Positions 14,587 through 54,301 of a stretch of 64,000 bases of DNA are shown piece by piece. The notes beneath the pieces are model-generated. The model was given only the letters and a program-made list of their open reading frames with translations. It was not told the origin of the DNA and ran no database searches. Origin of the DNA: Candidatus Heimdallarchaeota archaeon (GTDB lineage: Archaea; Asgardarchaeota; Heimdallarchaeia; Heimdallarchaeales; Heimdallarchaeaceae); assembly GCA_019057375.1 (NCBI GenBank), contig DXJF01000097.1:1-64000 (forward strand), read 5' to 3'. Numbering within the stretch: the stretch's first letter is position 1; every line of letters begins with the position of its first letter. The position numbers and the translations under genes are program-made.

Positions 14587-14701
14587 TGGTGCGGGGAGGG
14601 AGATTCGAACTCCCGAACCACTAAGGAACGGATGTCCCATCTAGCCAATGACTCTTGATAGATCTTGAGTCCGTCATCGTTGACCACTTGATTATCCCCG
14701 C
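14587..14701 (-). tRNA. tRNA-Leu(CAA) with 30-nt intron at 37/38
   Basis: GCGGGGA/TCCCCGC acceptor; ACGGA-CTCAAG[intron]A-TCCGT; BHB helix CTCA/TGGG; long variable arm; ACCA. Confidence 0.95.
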
Positions 14702-49565: not shown

Positions 49566-49607
49566 TGGTGCGGGGAGGGAGATTCGAACTCCCGAACCAC
49601 TAAGGAA
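49566..49607 (-). repeat. Copy of tRNA-Leu 3' exon, interrupted by TnpB-like element
   Basis: 42/42 identical to 14587-14628 (Leu-CAA), 40/42 to Leu-TAA; continuation CGGATG is at 51647-51652. Confidence 0.95.
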
Positions 49608-51646
49608 AGGTGTTTTTTTATCGTGTTTAAATATCAAATTACAGATATAAAAGTGATGAATTCTGTGCTTGTAAAAGATCTCGAAGAAGAAAAGGAAGTT
49701 CAAAAAACCTATTCCTTAGTTCTTAGATTTCAAAATCTAGCACAAAGAAAAGAAGCTAACCATCGAGTCAGCGATTTAGAAGATAAACAATCACTATTAC
49801 TATATGATACTTCTACTCAAAAAATTGCAAGAGATTTAGCTCGCGAAAATCCAAATGTTTCATTTCCTATTTCTAAAATCCAAAAATCTTCGAGGAGCAG
49901 TTCAAATATCTCTTTCAGTGCTTATAATTGGTTGTTTGCAGCATCAAAAGTGTCTGTTGATAAGGAAAAGAAAGTAGCTGATTTATTCCAGTTTCTGTTA
50001 CAAAATCCACAGCAAGCAATTGAATGGGTGATTCTTGGACGTTCTCCCTATACTGAAATTTCTCTTTCGAAGAAATGGAGAGTAGATTATGTATATGTTA
50101 TAAATCTCTTGACAAGTACTAGACGAAAAACTAACACTTATTGGAAAAAGAATTTTACTATGAGCTTTAAAGAAAAGCAACTAGAGTTCAATTCAAAGCT
50201 TCCAAAGACAACACAATTTGAAGTTGAACAAGCAATACAAGACTGCTATGAAGTAAAGGTAGAAGAGTATGCAAAATTGAAGAAAACTACTGAAAAACAA
50301 TATACTTTTCTTGATAAATTAGCTTTGGTAGTGAAACATAAGTATGTTATAGCTCCATATGTAACTTCTTGGATTAATCTTTCTCAAAAAGCTCGGTGGA
50401 AAAGCTTAAAGCAACTGAGTAAACAACTTGCTGAAACGATTGGTCAAATCAATGAAAAACTCCATTCTACAATAAGATTGATAGTAGTTTTTGCACTCTT
50501 CTCAAAACTGTGGGGGACTGTATCTAAATTAATTGATTCAACTAATCCAGAAGAAGTTGTAAGTTCTCCGTTTGAAAGAAAAAAAGCGAATTTACCAATT
50601 AAAATGTTAATGAAACATGAATATGACATAATTCGACCTGGTAACTCTCAAAAGATGACACAACTTGCTAAAGAACAAGGATGCTTTGAACTTGGATTTC
50701 CATGTAAAGGAAAAAAAAGAATAACAGGTAATCTTCTGTTTACAGAAAAAATTATCGAATATCTGAAAAATGGTGCTAGTGTAAGAATCTTACAAATTAA
50801 AAGTGGAAAAGCTCCTAACTACAAACCCAAGATTTCAGTTGTTCTTCATGGTACTCCTAGCATGTTTGTGAGCACCAAACTAGCACAAAAATATGCTAAC
50901 AGTATGAATCTCACTGCTGCTAATATCTTAGGGCTAGATGTCAATAGAGTAGGAAAACACATGTTGTCGTTCTCTAATGAAGTTCCATTGGATTCTAGAT
51001 TGAGATCTTTATCAAACCATTACCTCTCCTTAACAAGAAAAGAAATTCCAAGATTGAGTAACTCACTAAAAACTAAAGGTAAGCAAAAAGATAGTTATGG
51101 TTATATTAAAACAAAGGGTGAGCTAAATAGGATATATAACAAAAGAACTAATATAATTAAGGAAATTAAGAGAATAATACCACATTACATTGCGGGAGTT
51201 ATTATCAAGAGTAAGTGTAAATTTTTTTGTATAGAAGAGTTTCGTAAGAATCCAAGAGGGAAAAGAGGTGCATTAGCAAAAGCAATATACAACATGCCTT
51301 ACGAAGACAATATTTTTGAAAAAGCAGTCCAGATTGCGACTCACATTCTTAGTTATAAAGTGAAACTTGTATATGTAAGTGCTCGTAACACAAGTAAATA
51401 TCATTATAGTTGTAGAGGTGTGATTCAAAGAGATCTTAAAAATTATGATTATGCTCTCTGTAAAAAATGTGGTGAACGAGTAAATACACATATTAATGCT
51501 GCTAAAAACATTGCGAAGAAAGGAGAAACAATAATAAAGCAAATCAAGCTTCCCCTAGACGCCGCTAAGGGGACGGGGTAAATAAACCCCTCAAGTAAAC
51601 CTAAAGTTTCTACGAGAACCTAGTAAACTTCATTACGTGCGTGGAA
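49608..51646 (+). mobile_element. Transposase-less element encoding a large TnpB/Cas12f-like protein, inserted in a tRNA-Leu 3'-exon copy
   Basis: Excision restores ...CCACTAAGGAA|CGGATG; GGAA at 49604-49607 and 51643-51646; 3' GC-rich hairpins. Confidence 0.8.
49623..51581 (+). CDS. Large (641-652 aa) TnpB/Cas12f-like RuvC protein; alternative ATG start at 49656
   Basis: RuvC-I ILGLDVN, RuvC-II FFCIEEF, VSARNTSK, zinc finger HYSC...CKKC, RuvC-III VNTHINAAKNI (Asp replaced by His). Confidence 0.85.
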   Translation: MFKYQITDIKVMNSVLVKDLEEEKEVQKTYSLVLRFQNLAQRKEANHRVSDLEDKQSLLLYDTSTQKIARDLARENPNVSFPISKIQKSSRSSSNISFSAYNWLFAASKVSVDKEKKVADLFQFLLQNPQQAIEWVILGRSPYTEISLSKKWRVDYVYVINLLTSTRRKTNTYWKKNFTMSFKEKQLEFNSKLPKTTQFEVEQAIQDCYEVKVEEYAKLKKTTEKQYTFLDKLALVVKHKYVIAPYVTSWINLSQKARWKSLKQLSKQLAETIGQINEKLHSTIRLIVVFALFSKLWGTVSKLIDSTNPEEVVSSPFERKKANLPIKMLMKHEYDIIRPGNSQKMTQLAKEQGCFELGFPCKGKKRITGNLLFTEKIIEYLKNGASVRILQIKSGKAPNYKPKISVVLHGTPSMFVSTKLAQKYANSMNLTAANILGLDVNRVGKHMLSFSNEVPLDSRLRSLSNHYLSLTRKEIPRLSNSLKTKGKQKDSYGYIKTKGELNRIYNKRTNIIKEIKRIIPHYIAGVIIKSKCKFFCIEEFRKNPRGKRGALAKAIYNMPYEDNIFEKAVQIATHILSYKVKLVYVSARNTSKYHYSCRGVIQRDLKNYDYALCKKCGERVNTHINAAKNIAKKGETIIKQIKLPLDAAKGTG

Positions 51647-51666
51647 CGGATGACTTATTATTTTAA
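51549..51666 (+). ncRNA. Putative omegaRNA scaffold (to 51646) plus guide (from 51647)
   Basis: Hairpins TCCCCT/AGGGGA (51551-51573), GGGG/CCCC (51575-51590), TTCT/AGAA (51608-51618), imperfect terminal hairpin 51629-51646. Confidence 0.6.
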
Positions 51667-51710
51667 TAAATAATAGTTAGCTTAGATAAGAAAAATAGAT
51701 TTGAAAAAAT

Positions 51711-51812
51711 TGGTGCGGAGAGGGAGATTCGAACTCCCGAACTACAAAGGAACGGATTTCTTATCTATTCTCTAACCCTTATCTTAGGTTTAAAACTAAG
51801 ATCTTAAGTCCA
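51711..51812 (-). repeat. Diverged partial tRNA-Leu(TAA) copy (anticodon stem, intron, 3' exon); att-like
   Basis: Colinear with 54173-54275; BHB preserved; no D arm or 5' acceptor strand. Confidence 0.92.
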
Positions 51813-51860
51813 CCTTGAAACATAAAAGTATTAAAGGTTTAAAAGACAAAATAGGATTAA

Positions 51861-52739
51861 ATGTCTAGTAAAAATTGGGACACTGTAATAGAGTTACTAG
51901 AAACAATCACGCCCTCATATTACTTAGAAAAGGAGCTTAAAGCTACATTCAAATCTAATCTCCAATATAGAATAGGAAAATACTCTGAGAATTGTCGATA
52001 TTTCTTTCAGGAAGGTTTCGAAAAAAAATATTCAAATATTATTCCATCAGCAATAATTGTACCAAGGAAGTCAGGAACTAATATAAGCAAAATCGCAAAT
52101 GAAGCTGTTATATATTTTAAACAAAGCTTGGAATTGTTTAAAACATTGGATAACGTTGAAGAAAATGTGAGTCCATTATTGGAATATTATGGATTATTAC
52201 AATGTGTTAAGGGAGTAGTAATTTTAGAATTAGATGTGAAAAGTGACAAGATATTTAGTAAGCATGGTTTAACTCAAGAAACAAGATTTCATTCAAAAAT
52301 AGATGAACCAAAATCAACAAAAAAATATAAACTAAAAATGATTAAGAGAATTAAGCCATCAAAATATATCAACGCTAAAATTATGCCTTATGGTGTTTTA
52401 ACATCTTTAATCATTCGTTTCACAGATCATTATGATGAACTTTATTCTGACAGAGACATATACAAAATAAGTAAGCATTCTATGGATAAATACGTAACAG
52501 GATACTATAGACCTTCATTAGAAGAAATAACAACCAATCATCATGTAGATCCAATAATTGCTTTCATAGGTTCTTGGATGTTATCAACATTGGTAAGATA
52601 TAAAGCAAAAATGTGGCAAGAAATATGTTTGGGAGAAAAAGATGACATAATAAATAATATTAGAAAATTTAGGAGGGAAAAAATACCTAAAGCAGTAGAA
52701 ACTATGCTAATGGATTATGTAAGAAAGAGCTCTTGGTAA
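51861..52739 (+). CDS. YaaC-like protein
   Basis: YFKQS...VSPLLEYYGLLQCVKG...HGLT; C-terminal SWMLSTLVRYK..W. Confidence 0.6.
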   Translation: MSSKNWDTVIELLETITPSYYLEKELKATFKSNLQYRIGKYSENCRYFFQEGFEKKYSNIIPSAIIVPRKSGTNISKIANEAVIYFKQSLELFKTLDNVEENVSPLLEYYGLLQCVKGVVILELDVKSDKIFSKHGLTQETRFHSKIDEPKSTKKYKLKMIKRIKPSKYINAKIMPYGVLTSLIIRFTDHYDELYSDRDIYKISKHSMDKYVTGYYRPSLEEITTNHHVDPIIAFIGSWMLSTLVRYKAKMWQEICLGEKDDIINNIRKFRREKIPKAVETMLMDYVRKSSW

Positions 52740-52821
52740 CAGCTTAAAGAGTATTCATAAGTACTACAAAAGCTTAAAAAATAATGAATGAAAAAGGAAG
52801 GAGAGAAAGGAGGGGAGACAA

Positions 52822-54165
52822 GTGCAAGAGGATAATAGCGAAAATTTAGCTGAGCCAATAGGAATTAAAGAATTAGGAAAGAGAATAATTCTTCTCCCTT
52901 ATCACATTATAAGGCTCATAGTAAATAATGTTTTACTATTTATTTTAGGAAGTATAGAAAATGGAGTAATAATTGTAAGAGCAAAAAAAAGTATCAAGAT
53001 TGAAGAAGGAATAAAAAAACTCATACAGGAAAACGAATGTATTCTAAGAAAAAGTATCTACTTAAAGAAAAACGATAGTATAGACGAGATTAAACCAGAA
53101 GAGGAAGAAGAGCAAGAAGTAAAACGAATAAATGTTTTGAATAGAATAATGGCTATAGTAGTAATTTCAATAGTTTGGTCGTTTCAAATTGTGTTGAGAG
53201 TCATAGTTTGGATATTTATCTTGATTAATTGTTTAACCATTAGAAAGAAAGTAGGTTTAAAGGAGTGGGAAGAGAATAATTTGGGATATTACAGAGAAAC
53301 CATAAAATATCTTACAGGTATTAGTGAAGAAATACCTTTTTGGAAAGAATTAGGTGGTTGGGGCGAAGGTTTATTATTTATATTAGTATTTGATTTGGTT
53401 GTTATTAGGAATGGATTCTTAAGATTGTGTAGGATAATTCTTGGAGATACTTACAGTTATTATTTGATTATTTCGTTAGTATATATCATAATTTTCGTAA
53501 TTCTTATACCAAAATATCTGAAGTTTCCAAGTAAAAGTGGGGAAAGGAAAACTAAGCAAATAGTAAGAAGAATAGGAGTAAAAAAACCAAAAAGTATAGC
53601 AAGGACTCTCTTAATTGTGATTCTACTATTAGCAATTAAATTAGGAATTATTTATGGAATATCCTTGCTAATAGATTATAATGTAGAAAATTTTATTTTC
53701 CCAGTAAATACAGGTTATATAATTGCAGTAAGTATGAGTGCAGGTATTGCTGAAGAAATAATATACAGGGGATATGTAATAGAAGTAACAAAAAGAAAAT
53801 ATGGAACTTTAGTAACTATGATAATTTCAGGGTGTCTTTTTGGACTTGCACATTTTGCGCTTAATCCATCCATTTATAGTTTTGTTCAGATGTTGTTCGT
53901 AACCTTTATAGGAATAACATATGCGTATTTCAGAATTCTATCAGATTCATTGATAGGACCAATAGTCATGCACACAATATATGACATAATTGTACTATCA
54001 GTAGTATATACAACAGAAAAAATACCTGATTATGTCGTGTATTTGATAGCAATTACATTGAGTATTATAATAACAATAATTTCAATTAATTTGCTGAAAC
54101 TAATATACAAAGACAAAGAACTATTGATATTTAAGAAAAGAGGGAAAGAACAGAAGGAAGGATAA
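52822..54165 (+). CDS. DUF4389-like + CPBP (CAAX/Abi) intramembrane metalloprotease fusion
   Basis: AEEIIYRG, FGLAH, HTIYD motifs; N-terminal RIILLP...YLTGISEEIPF. Confidence 0.75.
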   Translation: MQEDNSENLAEPIGIKELGKRIILLPYHIIRLIVNNVLLFILGSIENGVIIVRAKKSIKIEEGIKKLIQENECILRKSIYLKKNDSIDEIKPEEEEEQEVKRINVLNRIMAIVVISIVWSFQIVLRVIVWIFILINCLTIRKKVGLKEWEENNLGYYRETIKYLTGISEEIPFWKELGGWGEGLLFILVFDLVVIRNGFLRLCRIILGDTYSYYLIISLVYIIIFVILIPKYLKFPSKSGERKTKQIVRRIGVKKPKSIARTLLIVILLLAIKLGIIYGISLLIDYNVENFIFPVNTGYIIAVSMSAGIAEEIIYRGYVIEVTKRKYGTLVTMIISGCLFGLAHFALNPSIYSFVQMLFVTFIGITYAYFRILSDSLIGPIVMHTIYDIIVLSVVYTTEKIPDYVVYLIAITLSIIITIISINLLKLIYKDKELLIFKKRGKEQKEG

Positions 54166-54172
54166 AGGAAAA

Positions 54173-54301
54173 TGGTGCGGGGAGGGAGATTCGAACTCCC
54201 GAACTACTAAAGAACGGATGGCTCATCTGACTTCTAACCCTTATCTTAGGCATAAACCAAGATCTTAAGTCCGCCGCCGTTGGCCACTTGGCTATCCCCG
54301 C
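54173..54301 (-). tRNA. tRNA-Leu(TAA) with 44-nt intron at 37/38
   Basis: GCGGGGA/TCCCCGC; GCGGA-CTTAAG[intron]A-TCCGT; BHB helix CTTA/TGAG; ACCA. Confidence 0.95.

Follow-up and report, generated by a model that had tools for sequence, protein, structure and literature searches.

The window analyzed here, a 64,000-nucleotide (nt) stretch of DNA from a Candidatus Heimdallarchaeota archaeon, contains a composite island that is specific to this strain and adjoins, at positions 49566–54172, the 3′ end of a tRNA-Leu(UAA) gene with an intron. The inserted DNA measures 4.6 kb and is bracketed by three co-oriented copies of the tRNA-Leu(UAA) 3′ end, which are the full gene, a displaced fragment of ~101 nt and a displaced fragment of 42 nt; the initial annotation of this DNA had already noted co-oriented tRNA-Leu copies here. 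In related genomes the interval is found empty, occupied by an insertion sequence (IS) only, or filled with different DNA, and these differences fall exactly at the repeat boundaries. With a probability of roughly 0.6, we favor a history in which small cassettes without an integrase of their own were inserted one after another at the 3′ end of the tRNA by a recombinase acting in trans.

The window is contig C47 of a metagenome-assembled genome (MAG) of 3.47 Mb that is 89% complete, referred to below as G000. Genus-level comparisons covered 25 genomes, that is, G000 and 24 others, and phylum-wide protein searches covered 400. tRNA genes were called with Rfam and with ARAGORN with introns allowed, which place four in the window: Val(TAC) at 1651, Leu(CAA), Leu(UAA) and Phe(GAA). 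With default settings, ARAGORN returns one tRNA only.

Anatomy of the island

Reading leftwards from the tRNA 3′ end, the island consists of a gene for a CPBP-family membrane protease fusion, a YaaC-like gene, a tRNA copy of 101–104 nt, 66 nt of intervening sequence, a TnpB unit and the 42-nt tRNA copy (Table 1). The core flank to the left of the 42-nt copy holds two bactofilin-like genes and SRP54, and AspRS lies on the opposite side of the tRNA. A 17-nt core of the Leu T-arm occurs four times in the window (positions 14598, 49577, 51722 and 54184, on one strand throughout), as compared with 0.05 occurrences expected by chance. The target tRNA is intact, with an Rfam match at 54176–54301 on the minus strand that scores 44 bits against a gathering score of 29.

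Table 1. Coordinates of the island, its tRNA copies and comparison loci (window positions unless a contig is given)
Feature	Position	Strand	Remarks
Distal displaced tRNA-Leu(UAA) 3′ fragment, 42 nt	49566..49607	-	Abuts native bactofilin-side flank
tnpA-less IS607-family element, 2039 bp	49606..51644	+	First 2 nt ambiguous with tRNA
TnpB-like gene, 641 aa	49656..51581	+	Pfam/NCBIfam: Cas12f1-like_TNB, guided_TnpB
Conserved right-end region with invariant CCCCT...AGGGG hairpin, candidate omega-RNA scaffold	51532..51644	+	14 diverse copies
Continuation of distal fragment (anticodon-stem 3′ strand and intron 3′ end)	51645..51664	-	Sits at TnpB guide position
AT-rich spacer, 46 nt	51665..51710	.	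Sole separator of distal unit and next tRNA copy
Proximal displaced tRNA-Leu(UAA) 3′ fragment, ~101–104 nt	51711..51814	-	CCA end to anticodon-stem 5′ strand, intron included
YaaC-like gene, 292 aa	51861..52739	+	PF14175, E 3.9e-14
DUF4389 + CPBP (Rce1-like) intramembrane protease fusion, 447 aa	52822..54165	+	PF02517, PF14333
Live tRNA-Leu(UAA), 44-nt intron	54173..54301	-	ARAGORN with introns, Leu(taa) c[54173,54301]
Paralogous tRNA-Leu(CAA), 30-nt intron	14587..14701	-	Comparison only, outside island
tRNA-Phe(GAA)	c[59658,59767]	-	Rfam/ARAGORN with introns
G000 tRNA-Met cassette locus	C72:4850-5451 (L149:1551-2152)		tRNA-Met, 441-nt insert, exact 42-nt repeat

The distal fragment comprises the CCA end, the acceptor strand, the T-arm and a portion of the variable arm. 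To its left, the flank is collinear with the sequence at empty sites in two relatives (G011 and G013). The fragment matches the paralogous Leu(CAA) gene, as well as a C..G-variant Leu 3′ end, at 42 of 42 positions and the adjacent tRNA at 40 of 42 (93.6% over 47 nt). The initial annotation had given this copy a length of 48 nt. A tRNA-Leu copy is indeed present at this point, but 42 nt of it are tRNA, and its inner edge is a transposon junction because tRNA sequence resumes beyond the IS as AACGGATGACTTAT. Specifically, AACGGATGACTTAT directly after the IS right end is what follows ...CTAAGG in the Leu(UAA) genes of G010, G006 and G013, and it is also kept after the right end in G017, G039 and G003. 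The distal copy was originally ~60 nt long and is now split by the IS. Similarly, the gap of ~60 bp that had been noted between the TnpB unit and the longer tRNA copy is real, although its first ~15–20 nt are the continuation of the distal fragment; the remaining spacer varies among G000, G017 and G003 both in length (25–75 nt) and in sequence.

The proximal fragment is 86% identical, over 51711–51811, to positions 30–129 of the live tRNA, and by alignment its position corresponds to that of the live tRNA in G017, G039 and G003. The two bases that differ between the distal copy and the adjacent tRNA pair with each other in the variable arm, so that the changes compensate; both states occur in Leu(UAA) genes of the genus: the C..G form in G010, G006, G001 and G003, and the T..A form in G000, G011, G013, G009, G017 and others. 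The live tRNA of G000 is identical over its 3′ 75 nt to that of G011, where the site is empty, and shows one D-loop difference from that of the sister genome G040 in the stretch printed. It is thus the displaced copies, rather than the live tRNA, that hold the foreign-looking variants. A crossover within the intron, suggested by a G011-like mosaic in the live tRNA and the 101-nt copy, was considered and dropped, since the GGCATAAACC variant concerned is shared with G040 and is therefore native.

With respect to the tRNA genes of the window more generally, introns of 30–44 nt are present in three of the four (both Leu genes and Phe), and these three encode CCA. They are also the three that default ARAGORN misses, and Leu(CAA) falls below the Rfam gathering score.

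Site polymorphism across the genus

The initial annotation regarded the interval as inserted DNA and proposed that related genomes be compared for gain or loss of cassettes at the repeats. Such variation was found. The Leu site is empty in at least 15 of the 25 genus genomes, and in a DNA search of relatives the bactofilin flank of empty-site genomes was joined straight to the tRNA, with a one-copy overlap of ~49 nt. Empty sites were found in G011, G013, G009, G018, G010, G001, G015, G012, G014, G016, G004, G007, G037 and G038, and G005, G008 and G002 are also empty on the bactofilin side; the closest relatives, at 92–96% identity, are among the empty-site genomes. The combination of the YaaC-like gene with the DUF4389/CPBP gene occurs, within the genus, in G000 only.

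Three other species (G017, G039 and G003) show a partial state, in which the TnpB element is followed by a short spacer and the live tRNA, and the YaaC-like and CPBP genes are lacking. The distal fragment is decayed or internally deleted in these three genomes and pristine in G000, which argues for a recent event in G000. A further state is seen in G040, where a 44-nt copy of the tRNA-Leu 3′ end is followed by 2018 bp with a single gene for an SBP_bac_5 solute-binding protein and then by the tRNA. The flanks of this insert are 94–96% identical to those of G000 (94% over 9.6 kb). The solute-binding protein gene is one of many paralogues in the genus and lacks a close orthologue. Finally, G006 carries another, unrelated insert of ~750 nt at the same spot. 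In a tree of AspRS, G000 falls within a tight clade together with empty-site genomes, and G017 falls in another clade, also with empty-site genomes.

An assembly artefact, which the initial annotation had named as an alternative, does not account for the arrangement, because the left part of the island recurs in the assemblies of three other species and a cassette protein has also been recorded on other contigs.

On the other side of the tRNA, G005 (L015, C102:62000–81000), G008 (L016, C24) and G002 (L017, C89) have DNA inserted between tRNA-Leu and AspRS. In all three, ~120 nt of the AspRS 3′ end are duplicated at a distance from the full gene, which amounts to ~11 kb in G005. The end of the AspRS gene may also be an insertion site.

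Mini-cassettes at a second tRNA gene

A self-repeat scan of G000 returned one more locus with a nearby T-arm-containing direct repeat, at tRNA-Met(CAT) (C72:4850–4958). The insert contains one open reading frame (ORF), which encodes a 131-aa membrane protein, and the two repeat copies are identical. Cassettes at the same gene were found in two relatives. In G009 (C10:1–1500, L161), two one-ORF cassettes stand in tandem, with three copies of the tRNA-Met 3′ end in a row, and a second contig ends in a further variant. G018 (C246:8700–11100, L160) has one cassette together with extra DNA containing a 346-aa ORF. The tRNA-Met site is empty in G010, G013 and G011, and the Met core is single-copy in the 13 other genus genomes in which it was found.

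The Met cassettes are ~0.45 kb long and have a single ORF, and each is closed by a 31–42-nt copy of the tRNA 3′ end. The cassette proteins of G000 and G018 are homologous at 43% identity within flanks that are 92–95% identical. No Pfam match was obtained for the tRNA-Met cassette ORFs. Since the Leu and Met loci both show cassettes at tRNA 3′ copies, small recombinase-free cassettes between such copies are a recurrent feature of this clade.

A separate peculiarity of G009 (L161) is that ~80 nt upstream of the first tRNA-Met core, unrelated sequence takes the place of the acceptor/D-arm part of the gene, and its intron is also different. The tRNA-Met gene of this genome may contain an additional intron or have undergone rearrangement.

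The TnpB unit is an IS607-family element

The initial annotation treated the TnpB unit as a cassette between two att copies. This view has to be revised, as an IS607-family element makes up this unit and interrupts, at a GG, what was a longer tRNA-Leu fragment. At its junctions, ...CTAAGG is followed by the element, which ends in ...GCGTGG, and then by AACGG..., so that the tRNA is continuous across the element. Insertion occurred after the GG of the variable arm, and the element itself ends in GG without target duplication, in agreement with the published IS607 rule of insertion after GG and termination in GG (PMC13565253). The right end, ...TTCAT(A/T)ACGTGCG, is common to more than 30 copies in the genus.

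The TnpB-like family has 10 copies in G000 and is found in all 24 other genus genomes; a homologue of the protein carries the NCBI annotation Candidatus Thorarchaeota. Many sibling copies have the 3′ end of a serine-recombinase tnpA gene directly upstream. The window copy and its same-locus counterparts in G017, G039 and G003 have no tnpA, and the window copy also lacks the outer left end. A zinc ribbon is present at the C terminus of the TnpB-like protein. With respect to the RuvC active site, a family alignment shows that the first Asp and the Glu are conserved and that His replaces the third Asp across the whole family; when solved TnpB/Cas12f structures are included in the alignment, NAD-xNAA is found opposite NTH-xNAA. 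Members at the window locus and at nine other G000 loci are 640–656 aa long, share the D-E-H arrangement and are in part still linked to tnpA. The spread of this family suggests either that the His form is active or that copies have spread without nuclease activity.

The sequence following the right end, where a TnpB guide would be expected, is that of tRNA-Leu(UAA), so the predicted guide would be a tRNA sequence. The live tRNA differs from this predicted guide in the intron part in G000, G017 and G003. The right-end hairpin showed no covariation across 14 diverse copies, and neither RAGATH-18 nor any other Rfam family matched the IS right end at the gathering score or at E ≤ 0.5.

Several other properties of the family were considered and set aside. 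In-frame TAG codons in many TnpB copies, examined as possible recoding, are natural stops near the C terminus. An apparent degenerate tRNA-Leu fragment at the left end of the family is the 3′ end of the tnpA coding region. Adjacency to tRNA genes is likewise not a family-wide property, being found for three of the 10 G000 copies and for hardly any in other genomes.

In two other G000 copies, at C65:38335–40770 (L078:2036–4470) and C145:90600–92813 (L079), the right end abuts the 5′ part of a truncated tRNA-Val gene (GAC, CAC), and a complete tRNA-Val lies on the other side. The complete tRNA-Val(GAC) copy beside the IS has an intron and the gene of relatives is intronless; G040 represents the IS-free state of this locus. 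At the second locus, a stretch near the tRNA-Val fragment, L079:2264–2550 (C145:90263–90549), resembles the H/ACA-type RNA HgcG/Pab40, but its Rfam score of 42 bits (E 3e-8) is below the gathering score of 77.

Recombinases and the proposed mechanism

None of the ORFs within 49566–54301 encodes a recombinase, as had been noted at the outset. The ORFs adjacent to the repeats are the YaaC-like, CPBP and TnpB-like genes, and halves of a split integrase of the SSV type were not found beside the att copies; PF16795 had no hit. Since no recombinase is present in the island or detectable in the genome, the enzyme, if any, would act in trans. Tyrosine integrases are patchy in the genus, with 12 of the 25 genomes above the cut-off, and one G042 integrase adjoins the 3′ end of another tRNA. 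Four Resolvase-domain genes are present elsewhere in G000.

As a separate observation, G000 and, at E ≤ 0.01, 11 of the 24 other genus genomes gave no match to any tyrosine recombinase, Xer-like ones included, in searches for which control archaea were positive.

In the mechanism that we propose, crossover between the tRNA 3′ end and a small circular cassette bearing a tRNA-derived att sequence would probably take place within the T-loop or close to it. The live tRNA would retain its native sequence, and the inner part of each displaced copy would derive from the incoming element. The confinement of foreign-looking variants to the displaced copies is what one would expect if the crossover lay near the 3′ end or T-loop. 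Newer arrivals would adjoin the tRNA, and the present island would reflect at least two insertions, each leaving a displaced tRNA 3′ copy, together with one transposition. One possible source of the recombinase is a plasmid or virus that was left unbinned; such elements are frequently missing from MAGs.

In terms of the order of events, two histories appear equally compatible with the data. The IS-bearing unit may have come first, with the YaaC/CPBP cassette inserted later beside the tRNA, or the whole 4.6-kb composite may have arrived at once in the G000 lineage.

Several observations weigh against serial insertion by a trans-acting recombinase. The main one concerns the enzyme itself: G000 gave no match to PF00589 or PF16795 in searches whose controls responded, and no recombinase able to perform this integration was identified. 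The initial annotation had pointed to tyrosine recombinases beside tRNA-Leu as a place to look, a suggestion that was not borne out, as no integrase of the genus lies within 1.5 kb of a Leu fragment; the same holds for the Met fragments. A search of G000 for further copies of the Leu core returned none besides the tRNAs and the fragments described here, and an excised circle or attP-bearing contig was not found in this genome. The repeats are also non-uniform in length and looser than a fixed att site, at 42–44, ~60 and 101 nt for Leu and at 31 nt for Met, or 42 nt if 11 nt of flank are counted. Serial insertion also leaves a coincidence unexplained, namely that the IS entered 40/41 nt from the CCA end, within 2–4 nt of where the 44-nt repeat of G040 has its inner edge. 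Lastly, vertical inheritance followed by many precise losses is compatible with the AspRS tree when that tree is taken alone.

Competing explanations

Chief among the alternatives, though one we regard as unlikely, is classical gene capture, in which larger plasmids or proviruses with an integrase gene inserted at the tRNA and then decayed, by loss of the integrase and most other genes, to the units now present. Integrase loss and tandem integration are documented in archaea (PMC8371274) and in tycheposon islands, tyrosine integrases occur in 12 of the 25 genus genomes, and unequal repeat lengths are as expected of unrelated elements. Decay is harder to reconcile with the state of the cassettes, of which at least seven in four genomes are compact, with intact ORFs ending or starting 7–60 nt from the repeats and with no integrase fragment in any of them. 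Moreover, the 42/42 identity of the G000 Met repeat marks that insertion as recent, yet the insert is only 441 nt long.

Somewhat less probable again is an origin that dispenses with site-specific recombination, the tRNA repeats serving as portable homology through which host homologous recombination, by Campbell-type or double crossover, brings in DNA of related cells. Such exchange would accommodate repeats of varying length, among them a 101-nt copy with the intron and, at Met, a repeat extending 11 nt into the downstream flank, and no integrase is detectable in G000 or G040. The diverged tRNA-Met cassette alleles (43% identity) in near-identical backgrounds would also fit allele replacement between conserved flanks. 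The initial formation of the repeats, however, would still require a non-homologous step, and their inner edges cluster at the variable region and T-arm, as for the T-loop class of integrase sites that Williams reportedly defined in 2002. Repeats of 31–44 nt are, in addition, short for RadA-type recombination.

We give very little credence to a stack driven by TnpB/IS607, in which an omega-RNA with a tRNA-Leu guide would direct cleavage of tRNA-Leu and repair would copy in the element along with neighboring cassettes. The tRNA-Leu(UAA) sequence at the guide position is kept in four species, the GG at the end of the left flank resembles IS607 targets and target-adjacent motifs (PMC13565253), and the two tRNA-Val copies of the IS in G000 abut truncated genes next to intact ones. 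Nonetheless, the IS is absent from the cassette of G040 and from all tRNA-Met cassettes, most copies in the genus are not beside tRNAs, the His in place of the third RuvC Asp leaves cleavage unproven, and a cell whose sole Leu(UAA) gene took up the element would not survive.

Least credible of all is the proposal of the initial annotation that the distal copy came from the paralogous tRNA-Leu(CAA) through one integrase cross-using paralogous tRNAs: its identity counts (42/42 versus 40/42) were reproduced, but such cross-use is not needed because both forms of the compensatory variable-arm pair occur in Leu(UAA) genes of the genus and because the continuation beyond the IS, AACGGATGACTTAT, is intron sequence of the Leu(UAA) type, reading ACTTATT after ...GGATG where the Leu(CAA) gene reads TCCCATC.

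Cargo genes

The YaaC/CPBP cassette, which lies between the live tRNA and the 101-nt copy, measures 2.36 kb, and the stop codon of the CPBP fusion is 7 nt from the CCA end of the tRNA. The GC content of the cargo is 28–30%, as compared with 35–38% in the flanks. To judge from domain matches, the predicted products are a CPBP-family membrane protease and a YaaC-like protein of unassigned role; PADLOC and NCBIfam returned no defense or named function for the cargo.

Relatives of these proteins are few. The YaaC-like protein has paralogues in G000 (C117), and its best matches elsewhere are 41–46% identical and lie at loci without tRNAs. The CPBP fusion has one full-length relative in the 400 phylum genomes, at 31% identity, and an 87% identical homologue on a 5-kb ENA/Logan contig; a CPBP homologue at >90% identity is likewise encoded on an ENA/Logan contig. 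Apart from the 87% protein, no close relatives of the cassette were found in JGI metagenomes (searched by protein), GTDB genomes (searched by the YaaC protein) or the phylum genomes. The YaaC-like and CPBP genes did not co-occur elsewhere in the relatives searched, and a search of metagenomes for a flank pattern gave chance matches only.

Relation to known systems

Little is known about gene gain and loss in Asgard archaea, the closest prokaryotic relatives of eukaryotes. In the clade studied here, two tRNA genes act as docking points at which tiny recombinase-free cassettes are added, stacked and replaced between genomes with 92–96% identical flanks. We tentatively raise the broader possibility of an integron-like cassette platform at tRNA 3′ ends in this Asgard clade, although we would not yet count it as probable. 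In such a platform, circles of 0.45–2.4 kb with one or two genes and with tRNA-derived att sequences only would be captured, stacked and swapped at tRNA-Leu and tRNA-Met by a recombinase acting in trans, and IS607/TnpB elements would ride in the att fragments.

Parts of this picture have clear precedents. For archaea, it is established that elements integrate in tandem at tRNA genes, that partial-tRNA repeats occur there and that integrases are lost (PMC8371274, which also reviews the archaeal gene capture of She et al. 2001). Tycheposon islands likewise show partial tRNAs, tandem integration and integrase loss (10.1101/2020.12.28.424599), and Asgard elements at tRNA genes are already known (PMC8813620). 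In common with gene capture, bacterial cis-mobilizable elements (CIMEs) and tycheposons, the loci described here have direct repeats of the tRNA 3′ end, an intact tRNA, stacked units, variable content and integrase-less units. They differ from these systems in that the units are 0.44–2.4 kb long, hold one or two intact genes and are tightly trimmed with no integrase remnant. Further differences are the Asgard host, repeats of 31–101 nt and a genome with no detectable integrase.

The resemblance to integron arrays lies in small, mostly single-gene cassettes with short repeats that look like recombination sites, in a recombinase located outside the cassette, and in rapid turnover among close relatives. 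Unlike in integrons, there is no IntI, attI or attC: G000 has no detectable tyrosine recombinase, the repeats are tRNA 3′ copies rather than attC sites, and the array starts at a tRNA gene. Gene orientation also differs here between the Leu and Met loci.

As for the transposon, the TnpB unit shares with IS607 elements (PMC13565253) insertion after and termination in GG, the absence of target duplication, a TnpB-like gene with a conserved structured right end, multiple copies, and siblings with tnpA. It departs from them in that the window copy lacks tnpA and the outer left end, encodes a protein of 641 aa with His at the RuvC-III Asp position, has no RAGATH-18 match and sits inside a tRNA att-like fragment. 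The locus is nonetheless a clean natural example of an IS607-type TnpB element with a tRNA-gene sequence as its predicted guide. A related case is the tRNA-Thr gene of Caldiarchaeum subterraneum, where a ~1.9-kb multicopy IS lies, in part of the natural population, between a tRNA fragment and an intact intron-bearing copy (PMC3293823), as at the Leu stack here. That case involves a 5′ fragment and intron gain, with no cargo cassettes described, and is closer to the tRNA-Val loci than to the Leu stack.

Taken together, the loci are set apart from known systems by the absence of a detectable integrase, by arrays at two tRNA genes and by their small, tidy units. If the cassettes are indeed mobilized in trans, they would represent a compact capture system distinct both from integrons and from full-size integrative elements.

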